NCBI RefSeq assembly: GCF_029478095.1
Contig: NZ_JAKOAV010000015.1
Coordinates: 3,332 to 35,331 of the forward strand
Reading direction: 5' to 3'
DNA: 32,000 bases
Origin: Pelotomaculum isophthalicicum JI
Lineage (GTDB): Bacteria > Bacillota > Desulfotomaculia > Desulfotomaculales > Pelotomaculaceae
Under the pieces are notes generated by a model that was given only the letters and a program-made list of their open reading frames with translations, made no database searches and was not told the DNA's origin. Each line of letters begins with the position of its first letter. The first letter of the stretch is position 1. Below, in pieces: positions 11,950 through 32,000 of this stretch. A program made the translations under genes and the position numbers.

Positions 11950-11955
11950 ATTATA
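11950..11955 (-). promoter_or_regulatory. Candidate sigma-70 -10 box (TATAAT) for activator copy 2
   Basis: Minus strand reads gacTATAATatc, 54 nt upstream of the TTG start. The -35 region is poor (TTAAAT). Confidence 0.3.
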
Positions 11956-12493: not shown

Positions 12494-12550
12494 AAATATG
12501 GCACCCCCTGTCTATACTACCATTGTATAACAGAAAGTGCCAAAGGTAAA

Positions 12551-12610
12551 TACATTTATTATTTTAAATATACATCTTTTATTTTAAAACTACTTTTACT
12601 ATTTTAAATC
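12551..12610. repeat. Three contiguous 20-bp direct repeats (TACWTYTWYT-ATTTTAAA-NN); candidate TnsB-binding sites of the decayed element's right end
   Basis: tacatttattattttaaata / tacatcttttattttaaaac / tacttttactattttaaatc. 14 of 20 positions are invariant, the period is exactly 20 bp, and the repeats sit 57 bp upstream of the tnsA remnant start. Confidence 0.8.
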
Positions 12611-12636
12611 CACAAAAATCTGTTTGTGTAAAATAA

Positions 12637-12765
12637 TGTTGTACACTAACAGACTCCATCACACAATGATTACTCAACTAAAAAGCAATTAACACAAAAA
12701 AATAGTTGTACACTATAATTCTAGCGTTTTATACTTTATTGAAATATATAGTTGTACACTATAAA
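12637..12765 (-). mobile_element. Putative left (cargo-distal) end of the Tn7-like transposon: three direct GTTGTACACTA repeats
   Basis: GTTGTACACTA occurs at 12638-12648, 12705-12715 and 12751-12761 with similar A/T-rich flanks. The outermost copy is preceded by TGT (12637). The dispersed three-site layout over about 130 bp resembles Tn7 left ends. It lies directly downstream of the last cargo gene. Confidence 0.6.
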
Positions 12766-12790
12766 TTATGTTTGACGTTTCCAATTGTAT

Positions 12791-15577
12791 TTAAACCAGC
12801 TCTACTAACCCCAGCAATTTGGCCGAAAACATTGCACCTTCTGGCAATGCACCTTTATATTGCAATTCCCTCTGCAACATTGGCGGTATAACTTCGGATA
12901 TTATGTGTTCTAACCAATCAGCAGTAAAGCCATCCCCAAGGCTAGGTTGCAATTGTTGTAACATCGTCCACGCTTGTTCTATACTTCTGGTTCTTTCCCC
13001 TTCCCTATTAACTCCTAAAGGTATTATCAAACGCTGTATTTGCCCCTTAGCCCCTAAAACCTCAATATGCCATACAGTTAAAACTCCAGTATTATTTAGC
13101 GATGGGATTTTACCACGCAAAGCTCTGTCTTCTGGTGGAAGGTTTGTGTATGCCTCTAACAATTGCTGTATTAACGGATGCTCCAGCCCTAAAAGCGATA
13201 GATTTTCATCTTCAATGGCAATATCTCTTTGGGTAGTAAAACGAACGGATTGCCCATTACCAATATCAGCAATATACGTTTTACCTTTTTCTACTTCTAT
13301 TAACTTCCCATTTTTATATTGTAAAGCTATGGTGGCAAAATGTATTAATCTGAGCATGCCAGCCCCTTTGTCATCATGGGCTTGATAATCAGAAATATTA
13401 AAACCTTCCAAGTCTTGAAAAAGCTCAAAAACAACATTCCTTGCCCTGGCGGCGTTCTCCATAGCCACCTCAATTTCCTGACGGGTACGGCGCAATGCTG
13501 GATCGCGGACCGCATCCTGATACAGGCGGTCGTAAGACAGCCGCTCAAACAACTGTCCCAATATCTGACTACGCAAATCTTCTGATACTTGCCCGTTCTC
13601 GTCAACTTTACCCAATGTCCTGGCGATCTCTTTTAATTTTTCCTCTAACATTAAATATATTTTGCCTTCAATTGTGTCTGCAGCAACAAAATTATAGACC
13701 TGGGCAGTAGACTTCTGACCATAACGGTGAATACGGCCAATCCTTTGCTCCAAATCCATTGGATTCCATGGTAAGTCATGATTAAAAAGAATCCGAGAGA
13801 ATTGAAGGTTTATACCCTCGCGGCCTGCAGCAGTGCAAATTAACACCCTGGGGCCATCCGGCCGTTTGAACCTTTTCTCCGCCGCTGTCTTGGAACCGTG
13901 GTCCCCACCCTTAAGCACTTCCACACCCTGGCCGGGAAAGGTACTCTCGATTGCTCCCTTTATACTGTCTACACTTCCCAAATAGGTGGTAAAGATAACC
14001 ACTTTCTCACTTTGATTGGCCTGCCATATTTCACCTAACGCTCTGAGCAACTCAATTATTTTTGTTTCAATACCACCCGGGAAACGTTCCAGCAGACTAA
14101 AAATACGCCTGCGCTCTTCCGGCAGGGCTAAAGATACAAAATCTGCAGCCGCTTCTTCAGCAGTTCCGGCAGCGATATCACTCGTCCCTTGCAAATCATA
14201 ATTAAGGATGAATGTTTCAGACTCCTCAATTTTTCGCAATACTCTTAAACGATAATCAGCCAAAATACGTTCTGCTTCGGCCCTCCCAATGGGATCAAAA
14301 GGCACATCAAACATATCATGAATCAGCGCGCGGGCTTCAGAAAGGGCGTTATCCCGGCCATCTACATCCATATTCTGATCACAGTGAATTGCTTCATGAA
14401 TTGTTAACATTAATAGTCGCCGGCGCAGTGTTTTTTTGACTGCGGCAAAACTGGATGCCGCGATTTTTTGAAAAATGGTCATGACAAAACCAAGGGCTCT
14501 ACCCTTTCCGCCTTGAGTTTCAGCCAAATTATAACCATCCCGCAAGTAATCCTGCAGAGCATTATAGAATTTTAATTCATCATTATTTAAATGAAAAGCT
14601 TGTGTATTAACAAGCCTCCGGGCGAAAATGGGACGGCCATCCGCTTTACAGGCATCAGCCTTTGTGCGCCTTATCACCACAGCATTTAAACGGTGACGGC
14701 TTTCCACCATTTCCTGCTCATTTTGGAATAGGGTCGGGTCCAATAAACGTACTAGCATCCAAAAACGGAAATGGTCCCCCTGATGTGGAGTAGCCGAAAG
14801 CAATAATAAATCCCGGCAATGGTCCCGGATTGCTTCTGATAATTTATAATTCTCGGTTTTTTTAACCCTCCGCCCATTTTTGTAAGCTGAAAGATGGTGC
14901 GCCTCATCAAATACCACCAAATCCCAGGGGGGAGCTTCCAGCAAACGCTTAACTCTTGCTGGCCGCTTCAAAGTATCGACCGAGGCAATTAACCGATTAT
15001 GTTTGGCAAAAGCATTTGATTTTCGGTCCGTGACATCACCTTCGGAACCAAATATTTCAAAATCAAGGTTAAATGTTTCATTTAACTCCCTGGCCCAGTT
15101 ATTGACTAGCCCCGCCGGCACAATCATTAAAGCCCTTTTCATCTGTCCGCGGGAAGCCAGTTCGCGAAGGATCAAGGCTGTTTCAACAGTTTTTCCGAGA
15201 CCTACCTCATCGGCAATTAAGTATCTTCGCGGTGATGCCATAGCCAGTCTATGTACTAGCACTACCTGATGGGGAAGTAAATCAACTTTAGCTGAAGTAA
15301 GAGTGCTGGCACTCTCCATAAGGGGTAGCTGTTCAGCCTCCCAGGACAGCCATAATAGCTCAAGATTTTTCGGGCTAACTTGGCGCAAACCCGATATTAC
15401 CCTTTGCTCCCAGGTTAATTGACGACGTAACGTTTCTACAGGAACTTGCCGTAGGCCAACAGACTTAAAAAAAACCGCCGCATAACCACCGGGGCTAAAC
15501 GCAGTGATTACACCCTCACCAAGATCCGGGTGATAAACTGACTGACCCGGCTTAAAATCAGGAATAACGGCGGACAT
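12791..15577 (-). CDS. SNF2/Rad54-family helicase (BrxHII-like)
   Basis: 928 aa. Motif I is LIADEVGLGKTVE, motif II DLVVFDEAHHL, motif III LLLSATPHQG, motif V LICTAAGREGINLQ and motif VI HDLPWNPMDLEQRIGRIHRYGQ. The ATG overlaps the upstream gene by 20 nt. Confidence 0.9.
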   Translation of the reverse strand: MSAVIPDFKPGQSVYHPDLGEGVITAFSPGGYAAVFFKSVGLRQVPVETLRRQLTWEQRVISGLRQVSPKNLELLWLSWEAEQLPLMESASTLTSAKVDLLPHQVVLVHRLAMASPRRYLIADEVGLGKTVETALILRELASRGQMKRALMIVPAGLVNNWARELNETFNLDFEIFGSEGDVTDRKSNAFAKHNRLIASVDTLKRPARVKRLLEAPPWDLVVFDEAHHLSAYKNGRRVKKTENYKLSEAIRDHCRDLLLLSATPHQGDHFRFWMLVRLLDPTLFQNEQEMVESRHRLNAVVIRRTKADACKADGRPIFARRLVNTQAFHLNNDELKFYNALQDYLRDGYNLAETQGGKGRALGFVMTIFQKIAASSFAAVKKTLRRRLLMLTIHEAIHCDQNMDVDGRDNALSEARALIHDMFDVPFDPIGRAEAERILADYRLRVLRKIEESETFILNYDLQGTSDIAAGTAEEAAADFVSLALPEERRRIFSLLERFPGGIETKIIELLRALGEIWQANQSEKVVIFTTYLGSVDSIKGAIESTFPGQGVEVLKGGDHGSKTAAEKRFKRPDGPRVLICTAAGREGINLQFSRILFNHDLPWNPMDLEQRIGRIHRYGQKSTAQVYNFVAADTIEGKIYLMLEEKLKEIARTLGKVDENGQVSEDLRSQILGQLFERLSYDRLYQDAVRDPALRRTRQEIEVAMENAARARNVVFELFQDLEGFNISDYQAHDDKGAGMLRLIHFATIALQYKNGKLIEVEKGKTYIADIGNGQSVRFTTQRDIAIEDENLSLLGLEHPLIQQLLEAYTNLPPEDRALRGKIPSLNNTGVLTVWHIEVLGAKGQIQRLIIPLGVNREGERTRSIEQAWTMLQQLQPSLGDGFTADWLEHIISEVIPPMLQRELQYKGALPEGAMFSAKLLGLVELV

Positions 15578-16076
15578 AAAATCCTCCCCCGATTTCTTTT
15601 ACAACTTCATTTCGATGCACATTATTATCCTCGACCATGATTATTTGCGCTTCCCTCGCCACACCGTTCCAAAGAGCAAAGGTTACATTCAGTTCATGTC
15701 CCCCCCGCAAACGTAAATAGGCGTGTTCGTTGGAATCGATTCGCCATTGCCGCCAATTGCAATTACAGCCGAAAACAATTCCTACATTGTTGCCATAAAA
15801 GTCCTGCACCCGTACAATCAATCGTTGAACTCGGTTGCGTAAAAACGTAAAAGCTGCCTCAGAATCCAGCGTCTCTAAAACGGTTTGCAACCCGACAACA
15901 AATATAGTTTTACCATCCCCAGATGGGATGGTAGATGGTAGTTTTCCTCCGATCCAGTTAAGGGCCTTATGCAAGGGTATTTGCACTCCATTTTCTAGTA
16001 GGGGGCTCAATAATTGGGCATCCCATATTAAACTGCTGCCCGAACGTAACCAGCCATTACCCCTTATCTCTCTCAA
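15558..16076 (-). CDS. 172-aa protein of unknown function (candidate DUF3780-, BrxF- or BrxB-like accessory component)
   Basis: There is no ATG in the first ~150 codons. The TTG start at 16076 overlaps the methyltransferase stop (gcTTGA). Both ends are overlapped by neighbouring genes. It contains SGDGKTIFVVG, a degenerate P-loop-like string of uncertain meaning. Confidence 0.6.
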   Translation of the reverse strand: MREIRGNGWLRSGSSLIWDAQLLSPLLENGVQIPLHKALNWIGGKLPSTIPSGDGKTIFVVGLQTVLETLDSEAAFTFLRNRVQRLIVRVQDFYGNNVGIVFGCNCNWRQWRIDSNEHAYLRLRGGHELNVTFALWNGVAREAQIIMVEDNNVHRNEVVKEIGGGFYVRRYS

Positions 16077-19000
16077 GCGTCATACACCTCCCCTTCTTCG
16101 CGTAAATCTAAGGCATATTGAACGAATTTTGGTTTAGTAGGCTTAATTAGATTGTTCTTTCTCCAGCCTTGCAATAAACGCCTACCAAGTTCAGACGCCT
16201 GCCTGATGTGTAAATGCGGAGACATTTCTGCATACCAACCTAAAATAGCCTCAACAGGAGGTTTATAATTTAGTTTTTCTTCACTCAATTCCTTTTGAAT
16301 ATCTATACCGCTTTTAGGAAAGGCTGCCCCGATAACAAAATGGGCAATGTCGAGATCTAGTTTTATTGAATCCCTACGTTTTCCAGGCCGGGTCAAAAAA
16401 GCAAATCTCTGCTCTAACGGTACCACCGATACTTTTTTATTAACCTCCACAACCCAACCCAGTTCTATCAAATCATCTATTGTGACCGTTGTCCCCCTTA
16501 ACATTTTGTGCACGTCATCCCGGGGTAACGTTTCAGTATTCTGAAATAAGCTTAAAAATAGCCGTGTAACAGGCAGTGCAGATTCCGGAGGCCGCTTGAC
16601 AAGATCACCGCCAGTGTCATCCAGCAATTGATTTATTCCTAATAACGCATCTTTTATGGAGAGAACCTCACCGCTCCCGGTAAAAACCTGACCGTAATGA
16701 CGGCTGTAAAATTCTAGGGCTTTCCCTCGTAAAACCACCCTGATATCCGCTTCAGAAATATCCTGGTTGCGATATAATTCAAGGATACGTTGCTGGTTTT
16801 TAACTTCTTCTTTAACCCAGCGGCGCATTTTGGCCCAGGATACAGGTGTTGGATCCTCCAAACGCTTGCGGCAAACATGGAGAATGTCATACTCGATTTT
16901 GCGCGAGCCAAAGGCACCTCCCTCTCCTTTTGTTTCGTCACTACGGATAGGATAAGTGGCTACTAAAATAAATCCAGCCTCAAATAAACTGCGCAAAACA
17001 GCCTCCCACTGCCTGTCGTCATTGTGATGGAAGGTAAAGGCCAACAGTCCACCGGGCTTCAAAACTCTGTTTGCTTCCATCCAGCAGGCTGTAAGAGTAT
17101 TCTCATAAAATTCCGTCGCAGGTTCCGTGCGATAGAGAGGGTTTGGGTCACCAATGTTAAGCGCATTATCCTGCATATAATCCCTTATATATTGTAGGTG
17201 GTCGGCTTTTATAGTCGGCTTCTTTTCCCACTCTTCCCGGTCATCCGGGTGTTCAGCCCTGTTCCTTATTGCTTCAAGAGTTTTTGGTGTAGCCGTGGAA
17301 CGCCAATATTCAGCTTCCGGTTTGTCCTCATACCATTTCAACATCGGTATTCGTAGCCAGACGTAGAAGAAATCTGCCAAGTCAGCGTAAAATACATTGT
17401 CCGAGAAAGGCGGATCAGTTATTACCATGTCAATCATATTATCTTGGCAGAAATTTAAATCAGTAGAAGAAAAACAATATATATCTTCAATACTTTTTAG
17501 TATCTCATTTGTAAATAGATGTTTGCTGCTTTTATTATCTGATGCATTACTTATGTAAACATCCCAAGTATTTTGTAGCCAATTTAGTCCATTAATAACA
17601 TTTTTCTTAATTGAATAATAATTTCCATTACCTAAAGTACCGAAAGGCGCTACTTCAATATTTGTTTGCTTTGGGTAAAAATTATTATTTGCAAATAATT
17701 GGTTATTGTGATCTCTTTTAATATTATATGTGCAAAATAAGTTTAAAAAATTTAATGCCTGACTTAAACCCCCAACGACTTGCTGCAAATCTATTAAAGA
17801 GTGATCTTTGATTTTTAATATGCTTAACCTTAGAACCAAAGAATGCAATAGTAACTGTCTAGGATTAAACATTGTCCACCAATGTGTATAACCCCAATTG
17901 GGAATACCACCATTTAAATGATGCGTCATCCAGGCATATGGAAGCCTCTCCTTTGGCCAATAATCAAACAAATCACCATTTTTACGCTCAGCCCATTCTC
18001 TTTCAGCAAAAATTATTCGCCTTAGATCATAATCATCCGGTGCCTTAAAGTAACGCCCGTTGTAATTATAGCCCTCCGCTTCACATGCCGGACAATGGCA
18101 TTGCAGTGCGTATGTTGCTACCGGTGCTGTCCTGCGGGTGTCTTTTACTATCTCGAGGGCATTTTGGTTGAAATTCGAATCAGCGGCCAGTTCAATTATC
18201 TCTTTGTCCTCTTTTTCCCCTGCTATTATTGCCTGTCGCACCAAAGCAAGCCTACCTGATTGCCGCAACTGATCAACCCATTCAGGGGCATAGCCGCCGG
18301 CTTTCAATGCTTCAGCCATATCGTTAAGTGAAAGGCTCATTTTCACAGCAGTGAGCAAATCGTTCTCACGCCCGCAGGCTGAATTTTGACAGGTAAACTT
18401 GCTTTTACCTGGCACAGTGCCCTGGCGCGTATCCATAACAGTGCCGTCAGGCAGTTCTAAATATCTCGGCAATCCATATTTTTTCCGGTCGGTATCAACA
18501 TCAGCATCATCAATCTCACCGCTATTTAAATCCTGTTCATGGACATTGCCCTCACCGTCTTCTCCTGCGTACTCCTCTTCATCAAAATAAGCATGCGAAT
18601 CATCCTCGTCCAGTTTGATGCGGCCGCGCACTTCAATCAGTTCCAAATTTTTCAACCGCTCACGGAACCAGGCTTCCGTTTGTTCCGCCGTGGCTTTGGC
18701 AAAACCGCCCAAATCCATCTCATTTAATGTGCCGGGAGACCCTTTAAGCCATTCCGGATGAATGAGCAATGTCATGTATACGGGCTTACGCCCTATCCCC
18801 AACGCCTTTTTATCAACATTACCGGACTTGAAGTCATAAACGGGCTCATTGTTGACATAACCTTTTATTTTACCCCGCTGGCGCTCCAGTTCAGTAATTA
18901 ATTTTTCACCTGAAAAAGTTCCACAAGAAGGACAACACAAGCCTGGTTCATCGCCGGCGGATTCCAACAACCGTAATATTCCGGCCAGTTTTTCACCGGC

Positions 19001-20053
19001 GTTGCCCTTACTGTAATCTTTTAAACCCCGGGCATACGCTTGAGAAAGCTCCGTAAATTTACCTTCACCCGGCAGTATAACCCTGGGCGCTCCCGGCGCC
19101 ATCCGGGTTTCACCCAATTCGGCATGAAAAGACGTACCGCAGGAGGGACACTTTAATTCAATGTAACTGGTGGACAACTTTTTTTCCGCTACAACAGGCG
19201 AGCGAAAAACGGGTGTACGGTGGCCACAGCCGGTAGCAGGGCAAGGGCCATGTTTGGCCCAAAATGTATAGATAACCTCCGGCCCTTCCCAGCGATAATT
19301 ATGTCTTTCTTCTGGTGGCAAATCGATAGGATCCACAGATGCTATTTCATTTGTTCGTACATCAATCCAATTGCCCTTATGCCCACGGGGGCAGGTAGTT
19401 GTATAAAATGGCTGTATTTGAGGCTTTACTTCAGCCTCAATATGTTCAAAAAGTTTAGCAACCTCTTCCGGGTCTGAACAAGACAGTTCGTTTTTCACTA
19501 CCAACCATGCTACAGGGTTTAAATCAACCCCGTACATTTGCATGCCCAGGCGGGCTCCTTCAACCAGAGTGGTCCCACCACCCATAAAGTTATCTAAAAC
19601 TTTAAGATTTTTAAAATTTCCGGCCTTCTGGTGGTTTGCATAGTAATGCTCCCACACTTTTTTCGCAGCTTCGGCAGGATCTTCAGGGGCCTCGGTGGCA
19701 GCTGCTATCAAGGTTGATCTAAAAACTGAAGACCGTCTCCGTGCCCACCATTTTGACATTTGATAAATAGGTTTACCAGCGTTACCTTCCAGGGCTGACA
19801 AGGCATTAATTGGCGCTATGGGGAAATCCACCTCAAGGCAGGTTTTGGGACGGTCTGGATCAGAAAAATCCGGTACCTTTAGACGAACTGCTTTTCCTAA
19901 ATTGGGTGGAGCATCTTTTTGAATAATTTTTTTGGTAGTGCTTTTTGTTTCATTAAAGTTTAAGCTGGGACTCTCTAAAATTTTAAGCTGCTCATTATCA
20001 ACAACTAGTTGTAAATCACCATTTGTTGACTTGCTTTTTCGTCTAGCTGCCAT
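16073..20053 (-). CDS. Large DUF1156-type (COG1743-like, PF01555-class) N6-adenine/N4-cytosine DNA methyltransferase with multiple Zn-ribbons (PglXI-like)
   Basis: 1326 aa. N-terminal MSKWWARRRSSVFR (DUF1156 hallmark). AdoMet motif VLDNFMGGGTTLVEGARLG. Catalytic motif IV VITDPPF at residues ~880-883. C-terminal GGLLAFTFHH...AGFILVATYPIRSDET. Several CxxC...CxxC pairs (CPSCGTSF, CCPSCGT, CHCPACEAEG). Confidence 0.9.
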   Translation of the reverse strand: MAARRKSKSTNGDLQLVVDNEQLKILESPSLNFNETKSTTKKIIQKDAPPNLGKAVRLKVPDFSDPDRPKTCLEVDFPIAPINALSALEGNAGKPIYQMSKWWARRRSSVFRSTLIAAATEAPEDPAEAAKKVWEHYYANHQKAGNFKNLKVLDNFMGGGTTLVEGARLGMQMYGVDLNPVAWLVVKNELSCSDPEEVAKLFEHIEAEVKPQIQPFYTTTCPRGHKGNWIDVRTNEIASVDPIDLPPEERHNYRWEGPEVIYTFWAKHGPCPATGCGHRTPVFRSPVVAEKKLSTSYIELKCPSCGTSFHAELGETRMAPGAPRVILPGEGKFTELSQAYARGLKDYSKGNAGEKLAGILRLLESAGDEPGLCCPSCGTFSGEKLITELERQRGKIKGYVNNEPVYDFKSGNVDKKALGIGRKPVYMTLLIHPEWLKGSPGTLNEMDLGGFAKATAEQTEAWFRERLKNLELIEVRGRIKLDEDDSHAYFDEEEYAGEDGEGNVHEQDLNSGEIDDADVDTDRKKYGLPRYLELPDGTVMDTRQGTVPGKSKFTCQNSACGRENDLLTAVKMSLSLNDMAEALKAGGYAPEWVDQLRQSGRLALVRQAIIAGEKEDKEIIELAADSNFNQNALEIVKDTRRTAPVATYALQCHCPACEAEGYNYNGRYFKAPDDYDLRRIIFAEREWAERKNGDLFDYWPKERLPYAWMTHHLNGGIPNWGYTHWWTMFNPRQLLLHSLVLRLSILKIKDHSLIDLQQVVGGLSQALNFLNLFCTYNIKRDHNNQLFANNNFYPKQTNIEVAPFGTLGNGNYYSIKKNVINGLNWLQNTWDVYISNASDNKSSKHLFTNEILKSIEDIYCFSSTDLNFCQDNMIDMVITDPPFSDNVFYADLADFFYVWLRIPMLKWYEDKPEAEYWRSTATPKTLEAIRNRAEHPDDREEWEKKPTIKADHLQYIRDYMQDNALNIGDPNPLYRTEPATEFYENTLTACWMEANRVLKPGGLLAFTFHHNDDRQWEAVLRSLFEAGFILVATYPIRSDETKGEGGAFGSRKIEYDILHVCRKRLEDPTPVSWAKMRRWVKEEVKNQQRILELYRNQDISEADIRVVLRGKALEFYSRHYGQVFTGSGEVLSIKDALLGINQLLDDTGGDLVKRPPESALPVTRLFLSLFQNTETLPRDDVHKMLRGTTVTIDDLIELGWVVEVNKKVSVVPLEQRFAFLTRPGKRRDSIKLDLDIAHFVIGAAFPKSGIDIQKELSEEKLNYKPPVEAILGWYAEMSPHLHIRQASELGRRLLQGWRKNNLIKPTKPKFVQYALDLREEGEVYDA

Positions 20054-21051
20054 TACATTTCCTCCGGAAATTCAATTAATGGTACCAATACCTCAAAAAC
20101 TGTTAACCCTCCATGTGTCAGGTGGGGGTAACCTCCCTGTATCTTCCAGCGCCTTTGTCCCAGCACCATATGGTGATTATTTATGGTTGTGGCCAATGCA
20201 GGCATAAAACCGACAGGGAACGGAGTATCAGCCACACATGAACGGCTTGCGCCAAAATATTTAATTAAAATGTCTTTAGCTTGTTGTTCAGTTTCTTCGT
20301 TGGAAAATAATTTGCAATTAGCATAGCCATGATCTGAAGCAATAACCAGTTTCCTGCCTTTTCGCATTTTATTGACTAACTGCCAAAAGCCTGGACTGGT
20401 AAGTTCCTGTTGCACAGCATTCTCTACTTCCTCGGGTTCCCTTTTATAAAGGTGGATTAAGTCGTCAAGCCAACAGTGCCAAATAAATATATCCGGCGAA
20501 GGAGGAACGTCTCCTAGACAGTCCTGAAAAGGAGATGTCAATACATCGGTCCGGGTGGTCTTCCCTCCCAAAAGGAAAGAATCTGTAGCACCATTATTAA
20601 AAAGGCTCGCTCTGGATGGCATACCTAAAGCTTTGGCAAATTGTTCTGTTTCCGTTGGTAATTCAGCTCCTGTTATTTTTACAGAAACAGGATCCAACCC
20701 ATTAGCCCTGGCATTTTCAATTAACGGTTTCAATTCCCGCAAAGACAAAGCGTCAAGGATCAGTATAGCCCTGCCACCTACAGAGTTATCTTCCCACCAG
20801 CCTTTTAAGGCCTCCGCTGTACTGGTTACACAATCTATAAAATCATGCCATAGATTCCAGGCCGACTCTGCCAGTAACCTATCCAGTTTTACTGTAGCCT
20901 GATGCAGCATGGTCGGACTTACTTCCGGGGCTATCTCTAAAAGATAATTGATTATAGCCAGCCAGCAATTCTGGCTATTAGTATCATTTAATAAATTAAT
21001 CAATAAGTCTTGTTGTTTATTCAATAACTCTTTGTTTATATTACCCATCAA
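20053..21051 (-). CDS. pglZ: Stand-alone short PglZ-domain (alkaline-phosphatase superfamily) protein
   Basis: Motifs AILILDALSLRE, ELPTETEQFAKALG (nucleophile region), VIASDHGY and THGGLTVFEVLVPLIEF match the PglZ core. The track start at 21051 is TTG. ATG at 21048 overlaps the upstream stop (TGATG). The stop overlaps the methyltransferase start (TAATG). Confidence 0.8.
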   Translation of the reverse strand: MMGNINKELLNKQQDLLINLLNDTNSQNCWLAIINYLLEIAPEVSPTMLHQATVKLDRLLAESAWNLWHDFIDCVTSTAEALKGWWEDNSVGGRAILILDALSLRELKPLIENARANGLDPVSVKITGAELPTETEQFAKALGMPSRASLFNNGATDSFLLGGKTTRTDVLTSPFQDCLGDVPPSPDIFIWHCWLDDLIHLYKREPEEVENAVQQELTSPGFWQLVNKMRKGRKLVIASDHGYANCKLFSNEETEQQAKDILIKYFGASRSCVADTPFPVGFMPALATTINNHHMVLGQRRWKIQGGYPHLTHGGLTVFEVLVPLIEFPEEM

Positions 21052-23807: not shown

Positions 23808-23948
23808 AAAGATATTAATCCTTATGTGAAAATCTATAATATCAATTCATAATAATATTATATCCATTTTTATCCGTTTCTTTTAAGCAGAACAGTCAAA
23901 ATAGCTCACATGAAAATTCTACAAAATCATAAATAAACCTCCAATTAT

Positions 23949-24137
23949 TTACCTGAATTGATTATTAATATTGCTGGTAAAAATTGTGGCAAATAAAAGT
24001 AATGAGGAAGCCACAGGACCTGGACCGGTCAAGCCTTCCTCTGTGGTCACCGGTCCAGGACCTATGGGGTTGTGATTGAAAACTCGCTCCAAGGGTCGGG
24101 CGGTCGTGCTCTTGCGGCATTCCTTATTTACTGCCAT
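23949..24137 (-). CDS. Hypothetical 62-aa protein (possible small membrane protein) in the intergenic region between the KAP gene and the BREX-like operon
   Basis: ATG preceded by a strong SD GGGAGGG at 8 nt. C-terminal hydrophobic stretch VASSLLLFATIFTS. The ORF also contains a 14-bp inverted repeat that may be the real functional element. Confidence 0.3.
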   Translation of the reverse strand: MAVNKECRKSTTARPLERVFNHNPIGPGPVTTEEGLTGPGPVASSLLLFATIFTSNINNQFR

Positions 24138-24200
24138 ATCATTTTCCCTCCCATCTTTTTTATCGGGCGGGCACCAAGCTGTAAACGGGAGCTCACACGT

Positions 24201-24237
24201 AAAAAATAAATAACCGGAGAACTTACCGGTCAGTTCT
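24201..24237 (-). terminator. Intrinsic terminator after the KAP NTPase gene
   Basis: Minus strand reads AGAACTgaccggtaAGTTCT, or alternatively ACCGGtaagttctCCGGT, followed by TATTTATTTTTT. Confidence 0.5.
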
Positions 24238-24331
24238 AGTGTAATAGCTATTTAAATACTTGCCATGTTCATTTTATAAATACTTCGCCATTAATTAAAT
24301 TATATAAAATTTAGACTTTCCCCCTTATACA

Positions 24332-27300
24332 TTACCCTACTTTTCTTTGAATTTTATCTAACAATTTTGATTCCGGGAAAAAACTTATTAGTATTGCAAG
24401 ATCGTCTTCGGTAAGCTCCTCATATTTCCTTAAGTTGCGAAATACGGCGCCAACCTTTAAATCTTTCATCCAGGCTGCAAATTTATTTTTAATTACTTGC
24501 GATGTAACGGTAATAAAACATCTAAGTAATGTCACCCCAAGATCGTACTGTTCTTCTTTTGAAGTAAACAATTTATTTATATCCTCTTTGGTTTCAAAAA
24601 TTGTCCTTGCGGTCTCAGGAATTTCTTGAAGCTTAAAAACTTCTGGCAAAACTGAAATAAAGAAATCATTTCCCAGTTCTTGAGAAGTCCGACTAATAAG
24701 TAACCAGATACGTTTTCGTTGTTCGTCATTTAACTCAATATCGGTTACAGATTTTTTAAGTAAATCGGCTTTGTGCATTTTTTGCAAATCAAGCCATATT
24801 TGCAGACATAGATCAGGCTCCTGCTCCGTCCCCTTAGGCGTTTTACCCAAAATAAATTTTGTTGTGGCAACCCTTTGCTCATCGTTCAATATACCTACTA
24901 TATGGGACCAAGCTTTTTTAAGTTGGTCGATTTCTTCTTTCTCTTGTATATTGATCTGATCCATAAGTTCCGATATTCGCGACGGGCTGGGGGCTTGCCT
25001 GAACGCCAGAAAGGTATTGAGAGAATGAAACTGGTGATATGGCCACAGTATACAGGCCGTCTCAATTACATGTGCAATATTTTCCTCACCAACAATACCT
25101 CTCTGTACCATTTCCCGCATTGAATATATAATTCCATAAGAAGCTTCATTGTTTGGGTACTGAGCAGCAAACGTTTGAGCATCATTGAAAAGCTGCTGTG
25201 GGTTATATGGACTCAATTCAGCCTGTTGCATGGGCCAATATTTAGCCATTTGTTCGTGAAGCCAACCAAATAATGCTGGATTATTTCTTGCATTTATAAA
25301 TAATCCATGTAACATGGATCCTGCTTGAGGTAGCGGGCCATATTTGATAAGCCGTGGAAATACAGGAAAAACTATATGTAGATAATCAGTATTATTCAAT
25401 AAACGTGCTGTCTGTGAAAACATATTCTGTAAGTGAGATTGAATAGTTCCATACTTTATAGCTTCCTCCGGCAATTGGCTCATGAAACGTTGATAATGTT
25501 GTCCTCTTTCCTCTGTTACACTATTTGGCTGAGACATTTCCTGTAGATATGAAGTTACCTGATTGCGCTGTTCATCATTAAGACCACTAATAAAATTGTT
25601 GCCGAGCCAATTAATGCAGGGTTCAGGAAGATCCAACAATATACGTCCGGACCAGTTAGCTATGATTTCTCCTGTAAGCGTTTTATTAATGTTTTGTAAT
25701 GTACTTACTAAACAGGTTGAGAAAGCTGAAGTTTCAACCACATTGCTCCAGCTAATTGCAAGAGCTACGAGAGCTTGTTGGGCCTCATTACCGATATCAT
25801 TTATTCGCCCCTCAACAATATTCAGCAGAGCCAATGCTCCGTCTTCCCAATCAAGACCCCAGTTTTTATCATCCTCCATATCTTTATTAAGACGATTAGC
25901 AAAACTCATGATAAATGAGGTGAGAGCATTAGAATCAGGCTCTTTTTGATATCGTCTCATTAATTCCCAGGCAAGAGCAACCGCTTCCTTCATCTTAACC
26001 GCCACATACCTGGTCAACAAATCCCATAGCTCTATCCGGCTCTCCTCACCTGCATCCCATAAGCTTTGAAAAACGCTACGACTTCTTCCCATTACAACAT
26101 CTGTTTTAAGTTCTTGAGTCTGTTCACTTTCCATCTGGGCAGCGAGTAATTTTGTATAGCGGCCCCCGAGGGCACTTAATAAATGTTCTTGGTTTTCATC
26201 CATCCATGTTTCTAATTCGCTGAAAGGAAATATATATTCTTTACTTCTAATTGCAACACGTCTTATTTCGAGCCAACTTAAAAATGCACTGTCAGATTGT
26301 TCGTCCAGGCCGTTTCGCTTTCTCACCCATAAAACTAAAAGACAGGCCTGGCGTGCCATTTCGACAGCTTCGTCGTAAGAAGGAGGCTGTCCACTTTCCA
26401 AGCGAAAAGTAATATCCCCTTCAGTTCTTAGTAAATCTTCAATCAACCTTCCAGCTATATCTTTTTGTTCCTCAGCTGTGATAAATGGTAATATGTCTTG
26501 TATTTTTTCAATACCGAGCCGCCATCTCAATTCAGGTGAAATCGTTAGCCGGCGCGCAAGCGGACTTAAAAGCATATGTGCTTGTTCTTTGGGGAAACGA
26601 TTAGACAAGACCGCTATGACTGCCGCGGCATGATTTTGCCTGACATCTGTTTCATGATGTAGTTCTTCCTCTAATTCACGGAGCAACCGCATGTCTTCAC
26701 TTGTTAGAGGTCTGGAGTCTTTATCTCGGCCTAATTCTACGAGAACCCCCTGGTAGTCACCTGAGACGAAGGCATCATTAATACGCTGAGCTCCATCACC
26801 ATATTTTCTTGTCACGGGGTCTTGTGAAAGAAGTAAAAGTGGTAGTAGGGTGGATGGCCACCGAAGACCTTGAAGGCTGGCAATATACTGACGTAGAGGG
26901 CGATAATCAGTTTTAAGTTCATTACTCTGGTGATCAAAATATTTATACAAAAGATGTTTGGCTGATTCCGGCTGTTCTTCAATAGGTAAGCTGCGTATAA
27001 AAACATCCGTAAATCTATTGATAAGATTAGGCTCTTGCTGGAGATCGCTGTAAAAATCGGGGAAATCTACACGCAGAGCACAAAGCGCTGCAAGTGAAAA
27101 CGGATGATTGGTTACTGCACCTTCCTGTAGACCACCAGGGCGTTCTGTTCCTGCACCATCGCGCTCACGTTGTCGTGCCAACCACCAGGACTGTACAAAA
27201 GCATTTACAATTTGCAAGGCATTTCGCGGACTTTGTACACCCGGGTGAATCATTCTGTCAATAATATTTTCGAGAGGCACACCCCTATCTTTAAAATCTT

Positions 27301-28390
27301 GAACTATCTCAGGTAATTCACTAATTCTTTTCATCGCATAATCGCGCATATCTCGCTTGGGGAATTGAGGAATCTCAAGACGATACTGAAAAATACGATC
27401 AAGGAAACGACGTGCATCACTGCGGCTAAATCCGGTATTCAAAAGGCCTGATATATTGACATGCTGTCGGCGATTGGCTAAAGCGTTTGCCACCCTCTCT
27501 TCGTCGCAGGAAATAACAAAAACAATTCCCAATCCATCCGGCATCTGATTTTTTGGGATTTCCATAAAAGCCCTAACCGCATCTAAACCACTAACCATTT
27601 CTTCCGCAGAGAGTCGATCAAGGTCATCTATAAAAACTACAAGTCGCTCACATTTCTTGCCTTCTTTTAGGATTGTCCCGCCGGCTTTGTATTTAATTAG
27701 CTGCTTAATTAAAAGATCTTCATATTCTTCATTAGTTGTGCTAGGTGGTTCTATTCTAGTTATATTAGAAGATCGGGGAATTAAAAAATGCTTTAGATCA
27801 AAGGTAAATTTAATTATAGGAACCCCACATGCAAATAAAATAACTGATATAAAGCCTTTTACCCAGTCATTTGATATTTGAAGTTTACTTAGGATTAAAT
27901 ATAATGATATTAAGATAATTAAATATGTAAACGTTATTATTATTAATTGTGGCAAACTCCAAATCCATTTTTCAAAAACATCACGGAGAATATCTTTCCA
28001 TTTTCTTTTTTCAGTTAAGGTTTTTTCAATCTGATGAAATAGGGCATCCTTTAGTTGTAATTCATCTCCACCGATATTAAGAAAAACGTTCCTTAATAAA
28101 GCACGCTTGATATCTTCTCCACCGCATCGCCAAGCATTAAAAGTAATTGTGTGAATCTTCTCAACTCTTTTTGAATCATCCTTTAAAGAGGATAAATAAA
28201 GTGATTTAATTGAACTCTTACCGGTACCCCATTTTCCCAACAAGCCAATGCTATAAGGTGGTTCATTCTTGGAGTTTTCAATAAGACCTTCTAGTGCCTT
28301 TGCAAAATGTCTGTGACCAAAAGCATCAAATTCTACGGAGCTAATTTCCCGATCAAGCAAACAAGGCATTAGTTTTTTTTCTTCAGCCAT
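24332..28390 (-). CDS. KAP-family P-loop NTPase with intra-domain transmembrane hairpin and a C-terminal region of about 900 aa and unknown function
   Basis: 1352 aa. Walker A is IGLLGKWGTGKSSIKSL. Two TM helices (LPQLIIITFTYLIILISLYLIL and GFISVILFACGVPIIKF) are inserted before the Walker B VVFIDDLDRL, which is the defining KAP architecture. ATG with SD AAAGGGGA. Confidence 0.85.
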   Translation of the reverse strand: MAEEKKLMPCLLDREISSVEFDAFGHRHFAKALEGLIENSKNEPPYSIGLLGKWGTGKSSIKSLYLSSLKDDSKRVEKIHTITFNAWRCGGEDIKRALLRNVFLNIGGDELQLKDALFHQIEKTLTEKRKWKDILRDVFEKWIWSLPQLIIITFTYLIILISLYLILSKLQISNDWVKGFISVILFACGVPIIKFTFDLKHFLIPRSSNITRIEPPSTTNEEYEDLLIKQLIKYKAGGTILKEGKKCERLVVFIDDLDRLSAEEMVSGLDAVRAFMEIPKNQMPDGLGIVFVISCDEERVANALANRRQHVNISGLLNTGFSRSDARRFLDRIFQYRLEIPQFPKRDMRDYAMKRISELPEIVQDFKDRGVPLENIIDRMIHPGVQSPRNALQIVNAFVQSWWLARQRERDGAGTERPGGLQEGAVTNHPFSLAALCALRVDFPDFYSDLQQEPNLINRFTDVFIRSLPIEEQPESAKHLLYKYFDHQSNELKTDYRPLRQYIASLQGLRWPSTLLPLLLLSQDPVTRKYGDGAQRINDAFVSGDYQGVLVELGRDKDSRPLTSEDMRLLRELEEELHHETDVRQNHAAAVIAVLSNRFPKEQAHMLLSPLARRLTISPELRWRLGIEKIQDILPFITAEEQKDIAGRLIEDLLRTEGDITFRLESGQPPSYDEAVEMARQACLLVLWVRKRNGLDEQSDSAFLSWLEIRRVAIRSKEYIFPFSELETWMDENQEHLLSALGGRYTKLLAAQMESEQTQELKTDVVMGRSRSVFQSLWDAGEESRIELWDLLTRYVAVKMKEAVALAWELMRRYQKEPDSNALTSFIMSFANRLNKDMEDDKNWGLDWEDGALALLNIVEGRINDIGNEAQQALVALAISWSNVVETSAFSTCLVSTLQNINKTLTGEIIANWSGRILLDLPEPCINWLGNNFISGLNDEQRNQVTSYLQEMSQPNSVTEERGQHYQRFMSQLPEEAIKYGTIQSHLQNMFSQTARLLNNTDYLHIVFPVFPRLIKYGPLPQAGSMLHGLFINARNNPALFGWLHEQMAKYWPMQQAELSPYNPQQLFNDAQTFAAQYPNNEASYGIIYSMREMVQRGIVGEENIAHVIETACILWPYHQFHSLNTFLAFRQAPSPSRISELMDQINIQEKEEIDQLKKAWSHIVGILNDEQRVATTKFILGKTPKGTEQEPDLCLQIWLDLQKMHKADLLKKSVTDIELNDEQRKRIWLLISRTSQELGNDFFISVLPEVFKLQEIPETARTIFETKEDINKLFTSKEEQYDLGVTLLRCFITVTSQVIKNKFAAWMKDLKVGAVFRNLRKYEELTEDDLAILISFFPESKLLDKIQRKVG

Positions 28391-28412
28391 ATTGGTCCCC
28401 TTTCAACCAATT

Positions 28413-28441
28413 TTCATAAAACACTATTTTGTTATTTTCAA
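28413..28441 (-). promoter_or_regulatory. Candidate sigma-70-type promoter of the KAP NTPase gene
   Basis: Minus strand reads TTGAAA-17 nt-TATGAA, ending 22 nt upstream of the ATG at 28390. Confidence 0.3.
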
Positions 28442-28747
28442 CATAAAAAAACAAATTCCTCCAGACATCAAAACTATAAGTAAAACTACTATGCTTCACA
28501 GATAAAGTTATTTTTTAAATATCATAAATAACTTCATTTACCCTTAGTCAAATAAAAAAGACTTTTCAAAGAGGACGTCACATACTGCCCGGCCAAAAAT
28601 CTCGCTGCAAGCTGGTAGATGACATCATACAGGAAGTGGGTGCTTAGCCCACTCTTGAAAAAGCTCTGGGCATAATATATAATTAATTAGCCATTGTTTT
28701 CCTTGTACAATTTCCGAAAGTTTTGCCGCAGTATTTTTTGAACGTCC

Positions 28748-28962
28748 TTACTCATTGGCATACTGCTCGATTTTTGTTCGCAGCTCGCCAAGATTTATAT
28801 CCGCAGAAGCACCGATAATCCAGCTATCCTGGAGTTCACCAATAACTTCAATACCGAATATTCGTAACCCGTCTGGATCAGTGCGACAGGATCGATTTGG
28901 AGATAGAGTGGTATGGCCTGAGGGAGTTCTGGTAATTTTTCCTCATAACACCCGCTTATCAT
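28748..28962 (-). pseudogene. Possible frameshifted gene remnant downstream of tnsD
   Basis: Own translation. ATG at 28962 gives MISGCYEEKLPELPQAIPLYLQIDPVALIQTGYEY... A second frame reads ..DPDGLRIFGIEVIGELQDSWIIGASADINLGELRTKIEQYANE* and ends at 28748. Both read like protein, but neither frame is intact. No family recognised. Confidence 0.2.
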
Positions 28963-29018
28963 TAAAAGAGTTTATCAAAAAAGAGACTATAATGTAGGCT
29001 CCCACTTTTCACGATAGT

Positions 29019-30890
29019 TCATAAATTTTCTATTTCCTTCTGAATCTGCTGTTCTATTTTTTCAGAATACCCCGGTCGAAGCCCCGCCTCGCGGACGATT
29101 TTCCACGTTCGCAGCAATTCCCCCTGCTCACGCAATTTTTCTACCGCATATTCTACTCGTCTAACTTGAAAATTCTCCGCCGTTTCAACCACTTCTTGAA
29201 GAATACTCTTGGTTTTCGGCAACTTCTCCAAGTGTTTTTGCAGTAGCGCCAGTTCCCCAACCCGCTTACCTATTGAACTAATAGTCAAACGAACCGGCCT
29301 ACCGGGCACCTGTTTAATCTCCTGCGCTGCCATGGACACCCGTTCCGCCAATTCCTCGTCGCGTTTAACCCAATTCACGCGCCTGTCAGTATATTTCATC
29401 CGGCGTATCGGGGTAGGTGAATGATCATTTAGCCAGTCACGGTCATGCCGATAAAGCCAAGCATATTCTGCTTTTGTCGACCGGCGCAGTTCCGTCTTCG
29501 TTTTGCCAGGATTATGCTCCGCAATCTCCAGCCAACGGGCTCGATATTTATTCAATTCGCTTTGAAAATCCCTCATTGATAAATCATTTATTAACTGGTC
29601 ATTACTTTGGTCTTGTATTTTTTTCAATTGATTTTTTATAGTTTTCGGGTCTACATTAAGTTGCCGTGCAGATTCTCGTAGTCCCTTTTTCTCTACTACC
29701 GCCAGACGAATCAATTCTTTTTCCCAGGTAGGGCCAAATGATTTTATACGCCCAATTTTATATCGGTCTGATTCCTTTTGATCGGGCCCGCATCTTAAAT
29801 AAGTAAACCCGCAACTACATGAAAAGGTGCCAACAGGTAATCCTGTATCATAATCCCGGGTTAAGCTACATTGCTCAATGACAGGCTGACGGTAGTGGTT
29901 TGCTGCCGCATTTAAGCAAGGCCAAGGTCCACGGCCGAAAGGAAGATAACGCTCTTTCCTACCGGTCAAAAATTTCTCCGGCATTACGCCAAGAAACCTC
30001 ATAAAAAGGATGTGACGTATGGGATATGTAGTAATCCTGGGTTCTCGGACCAGCTTACTTAACCAATTGTCCTGATGATCATAATCAACTGCACTATTCA
30101 TTTGTACAAGAAATTCCGGCCCATAAAAACTCTTAAACGATTCAATCAGGTCTCGCTGTCTTACCCTGCCTGTATATGTTGCCAGGTCTATCTTTTGCAA
30201 GTGGTTGATATATCGATTTCGAAGTTCTGCCAAACCGAGTATCGGGGCTTCATTATTGAGTAGCCAATGAACCGCCTCGGCAACCGCCAGGTAGTGCGAG
30301 AAATCATTTTCTGGGTTAAACGACTTTAATTGCTCTTGTTTATAGTTTTTGATTAAGGGTTGAAAGACATGTTTGTTTTGCTGGGCTGAAACCGCGACAT
30401 CGCTTTCGGTTAACCAGATTTTATGATCAGGACAGATCTGAACGCCAAATACCTGGTGGATCCGGTGCCAATATGGTTCACCGTATTGTTCCTCATCGGC
30501 CTGCATGCACTCATGGCAATAACGGAGAAACCTTGGAGAAGTAATGCTGCTGGCCATGATACCAATCATCGTATGGATCTGCCCCCCATTTGAACCTTTC
30601 ATCGCTTGAATTATCTTGTTAGCCCTTTCTTTTGGCAAAAATGGTCTAAATAATGGAAACAAAGAGTGCCGATTGATCACAAGTTCCGGCGTAATCAGAG
30701 AGCCATGAGGTAAACGTTTATACAATGCCTCCAGACGATTCGGCAGATCCATCACCGCACAGGCCGTTTTGCAGCCGAAAAGGTCCATCATCGTATCCTT
30801 TAAGCTCATATTTCTGCTCCACATGTGATACCTGGCGAAGACGCTATAAAGGATTTCATCTGGATAAGGCGTCGGGAAAAACGGTAACAT
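29019..30890 (-). CDS. tnsD: TnsD/TniQ-family transposition target-selection protein
   Basis: 623 aa. The N-terminus MLPFFPTPYPDEILYSVFARYHMWS is the typical TniQ-domain opening. Cys/His clusters (CHECMQADEEQYGEPYWHRIHQVFGVQICPDH). HTH-like segment ESARQLNVDPKTIKNQLKK. It starts 15 bp after the tnsC stop with SD GGGGGGAAG. Confidence 0.8.
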   Translation of the reverse strand: MLPFFPTPYPDEILYSVFARYHMWSRNMSLKDTMMDLFGCKTACAVMDLPNRLEALYKRLPHGSLITPELVINRHSLFPLFRPFLPKERANKIIQAMKGSNGGQIHTMIGIMASSITSPRFLRYCHECMQADEEQYGEPYWHRIHQVFGVQICPDHKIWLTESDVAVSAQQNKHVFQPLIKNYKQEQLKSFNPENDFSHYLAVAEAVHWLLNNEAPILGLAELRNRYINHLQKIDLATYTGRVRQRDLIESFKSFYGPEFLVQMNSAVDYDHQDNWLSKLVREPRITTYPIRHILFMRFLGVMPEKFLTGRKERYLPFGRGPWPCLNAAANHYRQPVIEQCSLTRDYDTGLPVGTFSCSCGFTYLRCGPDQKESDRYKIGRIKSFGPTWEKELIRLAVVEKKGLRESARQLNVDPKTIKNQLKKIQDQSNDQLINDLSMRDFQSELNKYRARWLEIAEHNPGKTKTELRRSTKAEYAWLYRHDRDWLNDHSPTPIRRMKYTDRRVNWVKRDEELAERVSMAAQEIKQVPGRPVRLTISSIGKRVGELALLQKHLEKLPKTKSILQEVVETAENFQVRRVEYAVEKLREQGELLRTWKIVREAGLRPGYSEKIEQQIQKEIENL

Positions 30891-30905
30891 GACTTCACTT
30901 CCCCC

Positions 30906-32000
30906 CTACCTGGCCAGGAACTCACTTGCTGGCTTGATCATGCCAGCATCCTTTAGTGCTTGATAAGCAGGGATGCCTTTCTTTTTACTTTTCTCCACAA
31001 TTTCTCGCAGGTCGCCTGATAAAGAGACTACCTTATCTTTCCGCTTACGGCGGTTCGGTTCTTGCTTAGATTCTTCTTTTTCCGAGCTTTCATCTTCCTG
31101 GCTCGCTAAATATTTTACGGCAAGTGTAAACGCCTCTTGCATCACCAATTTCAGATTAATTCCTGAACCGTGCCGGTTCAACGCTTTAACGGTACATTCC
31201 CTGGCTGTCTTTGGTTCGATTCCCGCCTCGACCAGCCACCGTGCCACTTGAATAATAAGCGATTCCGCGTCATCATCCATAATATTTTTCTCCGCCTTTT
31301 GCTGATTACGCAAAGTATTCAATGTTCCCTCGATTGTAATGCGGTCTGTAGCGCGGTGGAGATATTCGTCCAGATTGCGAATCGGCGGATAAATATCGCT
31401 GATCTGGCTAAGTTTCTGAATATCTCTCGCTTTAAGGGCATCAAGAATCGGTTTGGCCAATTTAAGACTTTCCCTGGCAACATCCCGGATCAGGCCGGGA
31501 TAAATTCGTTCATCTTCCTGTCCGATTACATGCCATTGGGCTAGCATGTACAACTTGACAGCAATATCCACGATCCCTTGAGATTCTTCATATAACACTT
31601 GTCTTAACGCCGGAGTTAAAGAGGAAGAAACGTTTGTCCACTGGTACTCCCATAAACCATCGATAAAAAAGTCCCAAACATCATCCCGGGCAAGGTTGGC
31701 CCATATCAAATCTCCCTGACCGGCACTTCGCCGGGCTTGGGCAAACTCCCTGGTCATAAAGTGTAGCGCCTTAAATGTACCTACCAGTACAACAGGAACA
31801 CCAATGGTATTCACCATCTGCACAAAAAAATTCAGCATCTTTGCTGCCCCACCGCTTTTTGCTTCATTAAGGCGTTGGATTTCGTCAATTACCAGAACAC
31901 CCAACCCCAAAGCCGCAGCCAAATGGGCCATATTCGGCAAAAGCTCGTCAACAGTACGACGGCTGTTTCCGAATTTTTGATAGTATCGTGTACCAAGGAT
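30906..32000 (-). CDS. tnsC: TnsC/TniB-family AAA+ transposition ATPase (C-terminal ~364 aa; N-terminus beyond the window end)
   Basis: Walker B is GVLVIDEIQRL, followed by VPVVLVGT and sensor-like motifs. The reading frame stays open from the track's TTG at 31940 to base 32000 (ILGTRYYQKFGNSRRTVDELLPNMAHL...), so the gene is truncated by the window. Confidence 0.8.
   Translation of the reverse strand: MLGTRYYQKFGNSRRTVDELLPNMAHLAAALGLGVLVIDEIQRLNEAKSGGAAKMLNFFVQMVNTIGVPVVLVGTFKALHFMTREFAQARRSAGQGDLIWANLARDDVWDFFIDGLWEYQWTNVSSSLTPALRQVLYEESQGIVDIAVKLYMLAQWHVIGQEDERIYPGLIRDVARESLKLAKPILDALKARDIQKLSQISDIYPPIRNLDEYLHRATDRITIEGTLNTLRNQQKAEKNIMDDDAESLIIQVARWLVEAGIEPKTARECTVKALNRHGSGINLKLVMQEAFTLAVKYLASQEDESSEKEESKQEPNRRKRKDKVVSLSGDLREIVEKSKKKGIPAYQALKDAGMIKPASEFLAR

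Follow-up and report, generated by a model that had tools for sequence, protein, structure and literature searches.

What kind of mobile element occupies the right-hand part of this stretch of Pelotomaculum isophthalicicum JI DNA, where does it begin and end, and do the genes next to its transposition genes travel with it? The stretch (hereafter the window) is 32,000 nt long and corresponds to positions 3332-35331 of an 89-kb contig (C7:3332-35331); the locus adjoining it on the right is called L002. A preliminary description had proposed a Tn7-like transposon with tnsC and tnsD, directed by TnsD to a single attachment site. The present analysis gives strong grounds for regarding window positions 12621 to ~35828 as one complete Tn7-family transposon, inserted at an attTn7-type site just past glmS. 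The element measures ~23.2 kb (C7 15952-39159; the right-hand window coordinate is extrapolated). It is a clean example of a well-documented element type and does not represent a new one.

Reading away from glmS, the element comprises a right end with four abutting TnsB sites, tnsA, tnsB, tnsC, tnsD, a KAP NTPase gene, a five-gene operon and a left end with three spaced TnsB sites. Every gene between 12.8 and 32 kb lies on the minus strand, and Pfam agrees with the earlier reading of TnsC- and TnsD/TniQ-like genes followed, in the same orientation, by the KAP NTPase gene and the operon. The remainder of tnsC, tnsB, tnsA, the right end and glmS all lie beyond 32 kb. The features that define the element are the following.

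12616..12620, no strand: left copy of the target-site duplication, AAATC on the plus strand and GATTT read from glmS, of which only GATT is unambiguous
12621..12762, plus strand: left end of the transposon, tip TGTTTGTG, with three TnsB-binding-type sites (17-nt cores at 12633-12649, 12700-12716 and 12746-12762)
29019..30890, minus strand: tnsD, 623 aa, N-terminal TniQ (PF06527, 8.7e-24) and TnsD domain (PF15978, 5.7e-109)
30906..32000, minus strand: tnsC, C-terminal 364 codons in the window; whole gene L002 1238-2956, 572 aa, AAA_22/TniB
L002 2964-5186, minus strand: tnsB, 740 aa, Mu-transpos_C, outside the window
L002 5183-6019, minus strand: tnsA, 278 aa, PF08722 and PF08721, outside the window
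L002 6071-6160, between tnsA and glmS: right end, four inverted contiguous sites found by site search
L002 6184-8013, minus strand (the strand of the tns genes): glmS, outside the window on the right

The two ends carry the identification. Exactly three copies of GTTGTACACTA are present in the window, always on the plus strand (12638-12648, 12705-12715 and 12751-12761), and no copy is expected by chance (100 shuffles). A repeat search groups these copies as one 23-nt family with spacings of 67 and 46 nt, and the corresponding sites begin at offsets 13, 80 and 126 from the left tip. Beyond tnsA, four inverted site cores (ACAAAGTTGTACACTAA, GTAATGTTGGAAACTAA, ATAATGTTGTGCAACAA and ATAAAGTTGTAGACTTC) are spaced 20/20/21 nt apart, at offsets 12-13/32/52/73 from the right tip. 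The three left and four right sites have the core GTTGTACAC in common. Beyond these seven, no further copy of the core was found on the contig at up to 3 mismatches, and none between tnsD and 12762. The ends are thus asymmetric, with inverted TnsB-type sites, three on the left and four on the right, and TG/CA termini.

When the ends are aligned on the outermost site, TG occupies positions 1-2 at both tips (left TGTTTGTGTAAAATAATGTTG, right TGATCAAATAAAACAAAGTTG). The tip-to-site register of a relative, L088 (TGTCTGCGTAAAATAAAGTTG), equals that of both ends, and the right tip TGATC is kept in the closest relative, L040. The distance of 12-13 nt agrees with the median tip-to-site distance of 12 bp in Tn7-like elements (PMC8649781). 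The layout, three spaced sites facing four abutting ones with the outermost ~12 nt from the tip, is that of Tn7 and its relatives according to Benler et al. (PMC8649781). The left tip is placed at 12621 rather than 12637 because only the former is in register with the right end, with the relatives and with the flanking duplication. The preliminary description had reported three direct repeats over ~130 bp in a Tn7-family left-end layout, bounded by a TGT at 12637. The repeats and the layout were borne out, the latter being matched by four inverted GTTGTACAC-type sites past tnsA, where such sites had been anticipated. The TGT exists and starts the first binding site; the tip itself lies 16 nt further out. 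Separately, metagenome sequences have loose ends at 12683 (X2) and 12754 (X4), which hint at possible relatives that share the left end but carry other cargo.

The proteins encoded next to the right end were compared with the Protein Data Bank (PDB) chains of E. coli Tn7 by phmmer, and all four core components were recognized: TnsA (1f1z_A, 1.2e-48), TnsB (7pik_A, 3e-115), TnsC (8glu_G, 4.3e-83) and TnsD (8glu_X, 3.2e-28). The tnsB (740 aa) and tnsA (278 aa) genes had been predicted to lie past 32 kb and were found there. All four tnsABCD reading frames are full length. D300, D388 and E423 of TnsB are invariant in an alignment of 14 sequences, with a spacing of 88/35, and TnsC has a Walker A motif GTSGVGKT at residue 146 and a Walker B motif VLVIDE at residue 243. 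No TnsE_C match was obtained among the cargo proteins in Pfam scans, and no tnsE gene was recognized. No cas gene, CRISPR array, tRNA or Rfam match was found in the element (Pfam, PADLOC, NCBIfam and repeat scans), in line with the earlier remark that no cas genes lie between tnsD and the end.

Related loci place these genes in a coherent family. The loci were found by searching genome contigs with a TnsB alignment; TnsD as a single query gave none. The nearest TnsB in a collection of 5.8 billion proteins is 89% identical (P0001, from a metagenome), and the next is 67% identical. The tnsA gene stands beside tnsB in 79 of 80 genome loci whose TnsB is 44-66% identical, and the order tnsC, tnsD is kept in every related locus with enough flanking DNA. 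In ~20 of the 80 loci glmS is directly upstream of tnsA, as it also is in L004 and L005 (from related genomes) and in the degraded L040. The latter encodes a TnsA with 81% amino acid identity, and its right end lies 24 nt past glmS; its tnsA is broken by an in-frame stop, and only the first 190 codons of its tnsB are left (9168-10573). An in-frame stop also interrupts tnsA in L088 (9168-9995). A more distant element in another genome (L129, G027:C141 5846-16560; 48% identical) likewise lies just past glmS. Its cargo differs but is again of defence type: a protein resembling DruA, an N6 methyltransferase and two large proteins for which no family was matched.

The genome under study (G000) has a second Tn7-like element on contig C32 (L128 5255-14349), with a TnsB 48% identical to the one described here. 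In this second element a gene for a 1013-aa AEP-TOTE primase/DUF1653/helicase/PLD protein lies between tnsA and tnsB, tnsD is split into TniQ and TnsD pieces, and a HepT-like gene and serine recombinases follow downstream. Its right tip lies one base past the stop of a short hydrophobic open reading frame (ORF), not past glmS.

The site of insertion is well defined on the right. From tnsA, 165 nt of non-coding DNA lead to glmS, followed by glmM, cdaR and cdaA, all on the same strand. The right end is proximal to glmS and its tip lies 23 nt past the glmS stop codon, so that the conserved gene expected beside the right end is glmS; the tips of relatives lie 24-28 nt past glmS, in the same tip-to-site register. 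Read from glmS, the junctions are TAG-N19-GATT / TGATC...(element)...CAAACA / GATT-TT-TGTGG. The heptamer CAGATTT, on the strand read from glmS, is common to both junctions. GATT is duplicated, and a fifth base (giving GATTT or AGATT) fits only with a 1-nt register shift of one tip. A duplication of 5 bp is characteristic of the family (PMC11406308). The difference between 4 and 5 bp would be accounted for by slippage of one base within the run of T. Where the earlier description had looked for a 5-bp duplication, the locus has a short flanking repeat, GATT(T), with one base ambiguous.

By analogy with the Tn7 paradigm, from which the mechanism is taken, TnsD would recognize the conserved 3' coding end of glmS and then recruit TnsC, which would activate the TnsA/TnsB transposase sitting at the end sites. 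The element would then join downstream of glmS at a fixed distance and in a single orientation, with the six cargo genes as passive passengers. The suggestion of TnsD-directed insertion at one attachment site agrees with the locus, in which TnsD is the only recognizable target selector and glmS adjoins the right end.

The cargo consists of six genes, listed here from the left end inwards.

12791..15577, minus strand: SNF2-family helicase, 928 aa, BrxHII/HmaA/DrmD-like; Pfam SNF2-rel_dom and Helicase_C
15558..16076, minus strand: 172-aa protein, candidate iSTAND component
16073..20053, minus strand: N6-adenine DNA methyltransferase of 1326 aa; N-terminus of DUF1156 type, zinc ribbons
20053..21051, minus strand: short stand-alone PglZ-like protein, 332 aa, with weak matches to PADLOC PglZ (3.5e-5) and NCBIfam BREX_PglZ_3 (1.3e-5)
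21048..23807, minus strand: large AAA+ ATPase, 919 aa; Pfam AAA_16 (1.5e-4) and DUF499 (0.047)
24332..28390, minus strand: KAP-family P-loop NTPase, 1352 aa; Pfam KAP_NTPase (1.8e-29); a separate unit

The genes between tnsD and the left end are not regarded as transposition machinery because they are absent from related Tn7-like elements: no homologue of the KAP gene or of the operon follows tnsD in 84 related loci, for which a few kb past tnsD were covered. The element has a GC content of 42.8%, against 49.0% for the catabolic cluster on the left and 46.5% for the genome as a whole; the drop relative to that cluster, noted earlier, is real but modest.

The first five genes overlap or abut (12791-23807) and are read in the order ATPase, short PglZ, DUF1156 N6-methyltransferase, 172-aa protein, SNF2 helicase. 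On sequence grounds this operon fits a Type-3 BREX-related (BR) system, BREX standing for bacteriophage exclusion. For the operon labelled 'BREX-like' earlier, Type-3 BR is the better name. As defined by Rakesh & Krishnan 2026 (PMC12839542), Type-3 BR combines an ATPase of DUF499 type, an N6-methyltransferase with DUF1156, a nuclease-free BrxHII-like helicase and a PglZ encoded on its own; it occurs in 569 taxa, with a fast-evolving iSTAND gene in 82% of loci (PMC12839542). The helicase gives PADLOC matches to BrxHI/BrxHII (1.4e-100) and HmaA (4e-96), the BrxH, HmaA and DrmD models together spanning 1e-100 to 1e-79, and the domains that Pfam assigns to it are all of helicase type (SNF2-rel_dom, Helicase_C, ResIII, DEAD and related), with no nuclease domain among them. 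The methyltransferase matches HmaB (5.3e-31) and PglXI (8e-21) in PADLOC and DUF1156_antiphage in NCBIfam (4.2e-22, under its cut-off), while its Pfam matches to N6_N4_Mtase, DUF1156 (8.6e-5) and Zn_ribbon (residues 288-310 and 363-392) all fall slightly under cut-off. For the PglZ-like protein, 27 of the 30 nearest clusters in the ESM Atlas belong to a set whose only Pfam family shown is PglZ (PF08665); three listed clusters have proteins of 285-334 aa, with PglZ on 14-38% of members.

The two remaining operon proteins are less easily classified. The ATPase has no PADLOC match, including to HmaC or BrxC, and no match to a BrxC model in NCBIfam; in a sample of 400 other genomes of the phylum, only 2 had homologues. 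For the 172-aa protein, neither Pfam nor PADLOC nor NCBIfam gave a match. One of the genomes searched, G321, has the same five genes in the same order (L126, G321:C3 2910-19324; 33-60% amino acid identity), including homologues of the helicase (60%) and of the PglZ-like protein (48%), and the 172-aa protein, a candidate for the iSTAND component, is kept there at the same position (33%, E 2e-22). Within 34 kb of the G321 operon no tns, glmS or KAP gene was found. Its surroundings contain IS66 and other transposase fragments, a SIR2-like + DUF4020 pair alongside and a HEPN protein ~8.5 kb further.

The KAP gene is set apart by spacers of 524 and 628 nt, the latter separating it from tnsD, and its GC content is 39.4% vs 43.8% for the operon. 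Its PADLOC matches, PifA (4.6e-22) and QatA (2.4e-18), both cover the P-loop N-terminal part only, and its Atlas neighbours are other large KAP proteins of 1000-1350 aa. A role for this gene as a conserved target selector in the position of tnsE was considered and rejected, given its distance from tnsD and its absence from all 84 related loci. Judged by sequence families, all six cargo genes can fairly be said to belong to families associated with anti-phage defence, and it is as a family association, for six genes in two modules, that the earlier statement of an entirely defence-like visible cargo holds. In the preliminary description, cargo carried by relatives at this locus without tns genes and without the left repeats would have counted against the transposon. 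Queries with the methyltransferase and the KAP protein gave no match in the same-genus genome G001 (98% complete) or in four other relatives, and elsewhere the operon was found, without tns genes, at an unrelated locus.

Several observations weigh against a complete, functional transposon with defence cargo. The right tip is TGA, where TGT is usual, and the duplication is not a clean 5 bp, coming to 4 bp when the TG tips are in register. The same-species empty site was not recovered, and the boundaries are drawn from internal evidence and relatives. No clean empty site was obtained from the relatives G001 (same genus), G014, G002 and G008 (family); G002 has no obvious end repeats after glmS, yet is too diverged to act as an empty site. 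In metagenomes, exactly identical contigs span the cargo and tnsD with a depth of 2-6x (four runs, three studies). One of the runs is possibly the source sample, so that these contigs are not independent support, and they are too short to reach across either junction. The closest relatives, L040 and L088, both have in-frame stops in tnsA, pointing to a lineage that tends to decay. Residue 135 of TnsA is Arg in this element, at a position that is Lys in 66 of 70 homologues and in Tn7 TnsA. As for the cargo, its putative defence function follows from family membership only, and the assignment of the ATPase to the BrxC/DUF499 type is weak (E 0.047).

The TnsA residue deserves particular attention. 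R135 (codon at L002 5615-5617, on contig C7 to the right of the window) stands in the column aligned with the Lys of the Tn7 'QVK' motif in the PDB alignment (1f1z). We take this lysine to be K132 of the Tn7 TnsA active site E63/D114/K132; a literature search gave nothing useful on the point. The TnsA of this element keeps E63 and D116. In the 70-sequence alignment, Arg stands in the lysine column in three sequences, this element and the two unrelated cyanobacterial elements L059 and L061. Of the closest relatives, L088 and the C32 element both have Lys there, while L040 has an Ile that reflects decay.

Whether the element is able to move now is accordingly uncertain. That it is Tn7-like but a fixed fossil, inserted once, no longer excising and by now an ordinary chromosomal defence island, is a serious possibility, though not the one we favour. 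The arginine at the catalytic-lysine column speaks for it, as do the tnsA stop codons of the nearest relatives (one of them with a truncated tnsB), the TGA tip, the imperfect duplication and the single copy of the element in the genome. Mobility is favoured by the intact state of the four tns ORFs and of the DDE and Walker motifs, by seven well-conserved end sites and by a recognizable duplication. The arginine, present also in L059 and L061, may be tolerated. Moreover, loss of TnsA catalysis in Tn7 reportedly (May and Craig, 1996) switches the element to replicative transposition instead of abolishing its movement.

A more speculative proposal, which we consider improbable but worth stating, has two parts: that Tn7-like transposons with the Lys-to-Arg change perhaps keep tnsA yet move replicatively or not at all, and, separately, that the KAP NTPase and the Type-3 BR operon are perhaps a co-mobilized functional pair and not two independent systems. 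If such replicative or absent movement were true, defence islands at attTn7 would be locked in place after one insertion.

Slightly less probable still is that the cargo is not for defence, and that the set of methyltransferase, helicase and ATPase together with the KAP NTPase serves DNA maintenance, regulation or a similar role. In favour of this, the defence role is a predicted one, the NCBIfam matches are all far under equivalog cut-offs, and the ATPase and the 172-aa protein match no defence model. Against this stand the agreement of gene content and domain architecture with the Type-3 BR of 569 taxa (PMC12839542), the strength of the helicase matches to the BrxH, HmaA and DrmD models, and the position of the homologous G321 operon beside SIR2 + DUF4020, HEPN and IS (insertion sequence) fragments, a typical defence-island setting. 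A cargo of defence families therefore remains the preferred reading.

The outer flank of the left end shows that the transposon was not the first to use this site. The adjoining feature is the following.

12208..12614, minus strand: right end left over from a different and older Tn7-like element; this remnant abuts the transposon and is not part of it

The remnant has a tip TGTGG, read on the minus strand (12610-12614), and three contiguous 20-nt sites (12551-12608), also reported by TRF as a period of 20 x 3 at 12550-12609; the sequence of these sites is unrelated to that of the transposon's sites. A frameshifted tnsA stump (~12208-12492) is 53% identical to intact TnsA over 81 aa (E 8e-26). 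The remnant reads in the same direction as the transposon, and the older tip lay 25 nt past glmS. A search for the older element's left end gave no clustered match anywhere in the genome; the remainder of that element is gone. The younger element inserted 1-2 bp from the older tip, and one attachment site has thus been used serially. Target immunity is not expected to have blocked the second insertion because the TnsB sites of the two elements are unrelated (inferred from PMC11406308).

Two further sets of observations concern this site. Short Tn7-end-like repeat arrays directly follow glmS in G001 (L015 ~18400-18636) and G014 (L016 ~2780-2924), without adjacent tns genes; they look like scars of still other elements at the same site, with rearranged flanks. 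Bioreactor-sludge metagenomes contain an abundant relative with ~93% identity, and its contigs part from the window sequence precisely at 12208, where the stump ends on its inner side. These contigs (15-35x, three runs from two studies) cover the sigma-54 regulator gene (window 10520-12208), with 11900-12090 replaced by 420 other letters, while contigs identical to the element reach only 2-6x.

The remnant also bears on the weakest alternative, which sees the cargo region as having accreted: the BR operon and the KAP gene would derive from one or more earlier elements or islands, a short tnsABCD element would have inserted beside them, and the left repeats would belong to another element. Serial insertion is real at this site, and the KAP gene is set apart by its spacers and lower GC content; this alternative is nevertheless very unlikely, as the left sites share an exact 11-mer and the 17-nt core with the right sites beside tnsA, the adjacent remnant has an unrelated site sequence, no other end-like site occurs from tnsD to 12762 at <=3 mismatches, and the flanking repeat is common to both junctions. 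A single transposon spanning both ends and all six cargo genes is therefore retained.

The locus leaves knowledge of Tn7-like elements and of their cargo unchanged. Tn7-like elements with defence cargo, including BREX, are already catalogued across Firmicutes and other phyla (PMC8649781). Its added value lies in a newly described BREX-related cargo subtype, in the stacking of elements at one attachment site and in the TnsA Arg variant. It is a well-resolved natural case in which a site-specific transposon brings modules of phage-defence type to a safe place in the chromosome, and in which one attachment site is used again and again. It also places Type-3 BR, a class described only in 2026, on a delimited mobile element with defined ends, which offers a ready-made cassette for functional work.

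Compared with known systems, the element is closest to prototypic E. coli Tn7, with which it shares four homologous core proteins in the same order beside the right end, three spaced left and four abutting right sites, and a right end oriented towards glmS. Its site cores presumably resemble Tn7's own site sequence. It differs from prototypic Tn7 (tnsABCDE) in that no tnsE was recognized, in the TGA of its right tip, in the Arg at the TnsA lysine column and in a TnsB of 740 aa vs the 703-residue Tn7 chain 7pik_A; the cargo of Tn7 is an integron with resistance cassettes, whereas here it consists of genes of defence families. CRISPR-associated transposons (CASTs) are more remote. The element is not a CAST because it has no cas genes, with no Cas domain in any cargo protein, no repeat array and one TniQ-family gene. 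It resembles the elements assembled by Benler 2021 in being bounded by TnsB-site arrays ~12 bp from the tip and in carrying cargo of families associated with defence against mobile genetic elements. Defence genes are enriched in the cargo of that set, and BREX, with BrxC as marker, was recorded in 40 elements, including in Firmicutes (PMC8649781). The BR operon described here would probably escape such a BrxC-model screen, its ATPase matching no BrxC model.

Within the BREX systems, the operon resembles canonical BREX type 3 (BrxF, BrxC, PglXI, BrxHII, PglZ, BrxA) in its PglXI-related methyltransferase, BrxHII-like helicase and PglZ domain. It differs in having no BrxA or BrxF match in PADLOC or NCBIfam, a PglZ of 332 aa without extensions, a methyltransferase with DUF1156 and another gene order. 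Type-3 BR offers the better fit: the large AAA+ ATPase, the DUF1156-type methyltransferase with zinc ribbons, the BrxHII-like helicase without nuclease fusion, a putative short stand-alone PglZ (by weak matches to hidden Markov models) and a small, fast-evolving extra gene are all shared, although the ATPase-DUF499 match is weak and the 172-aa protein is only a candidate iSTAND. The main text of the study that defined Type-3 BR makes no mention of Tn7, and transposons appear in its reference list only (PMC12839542).

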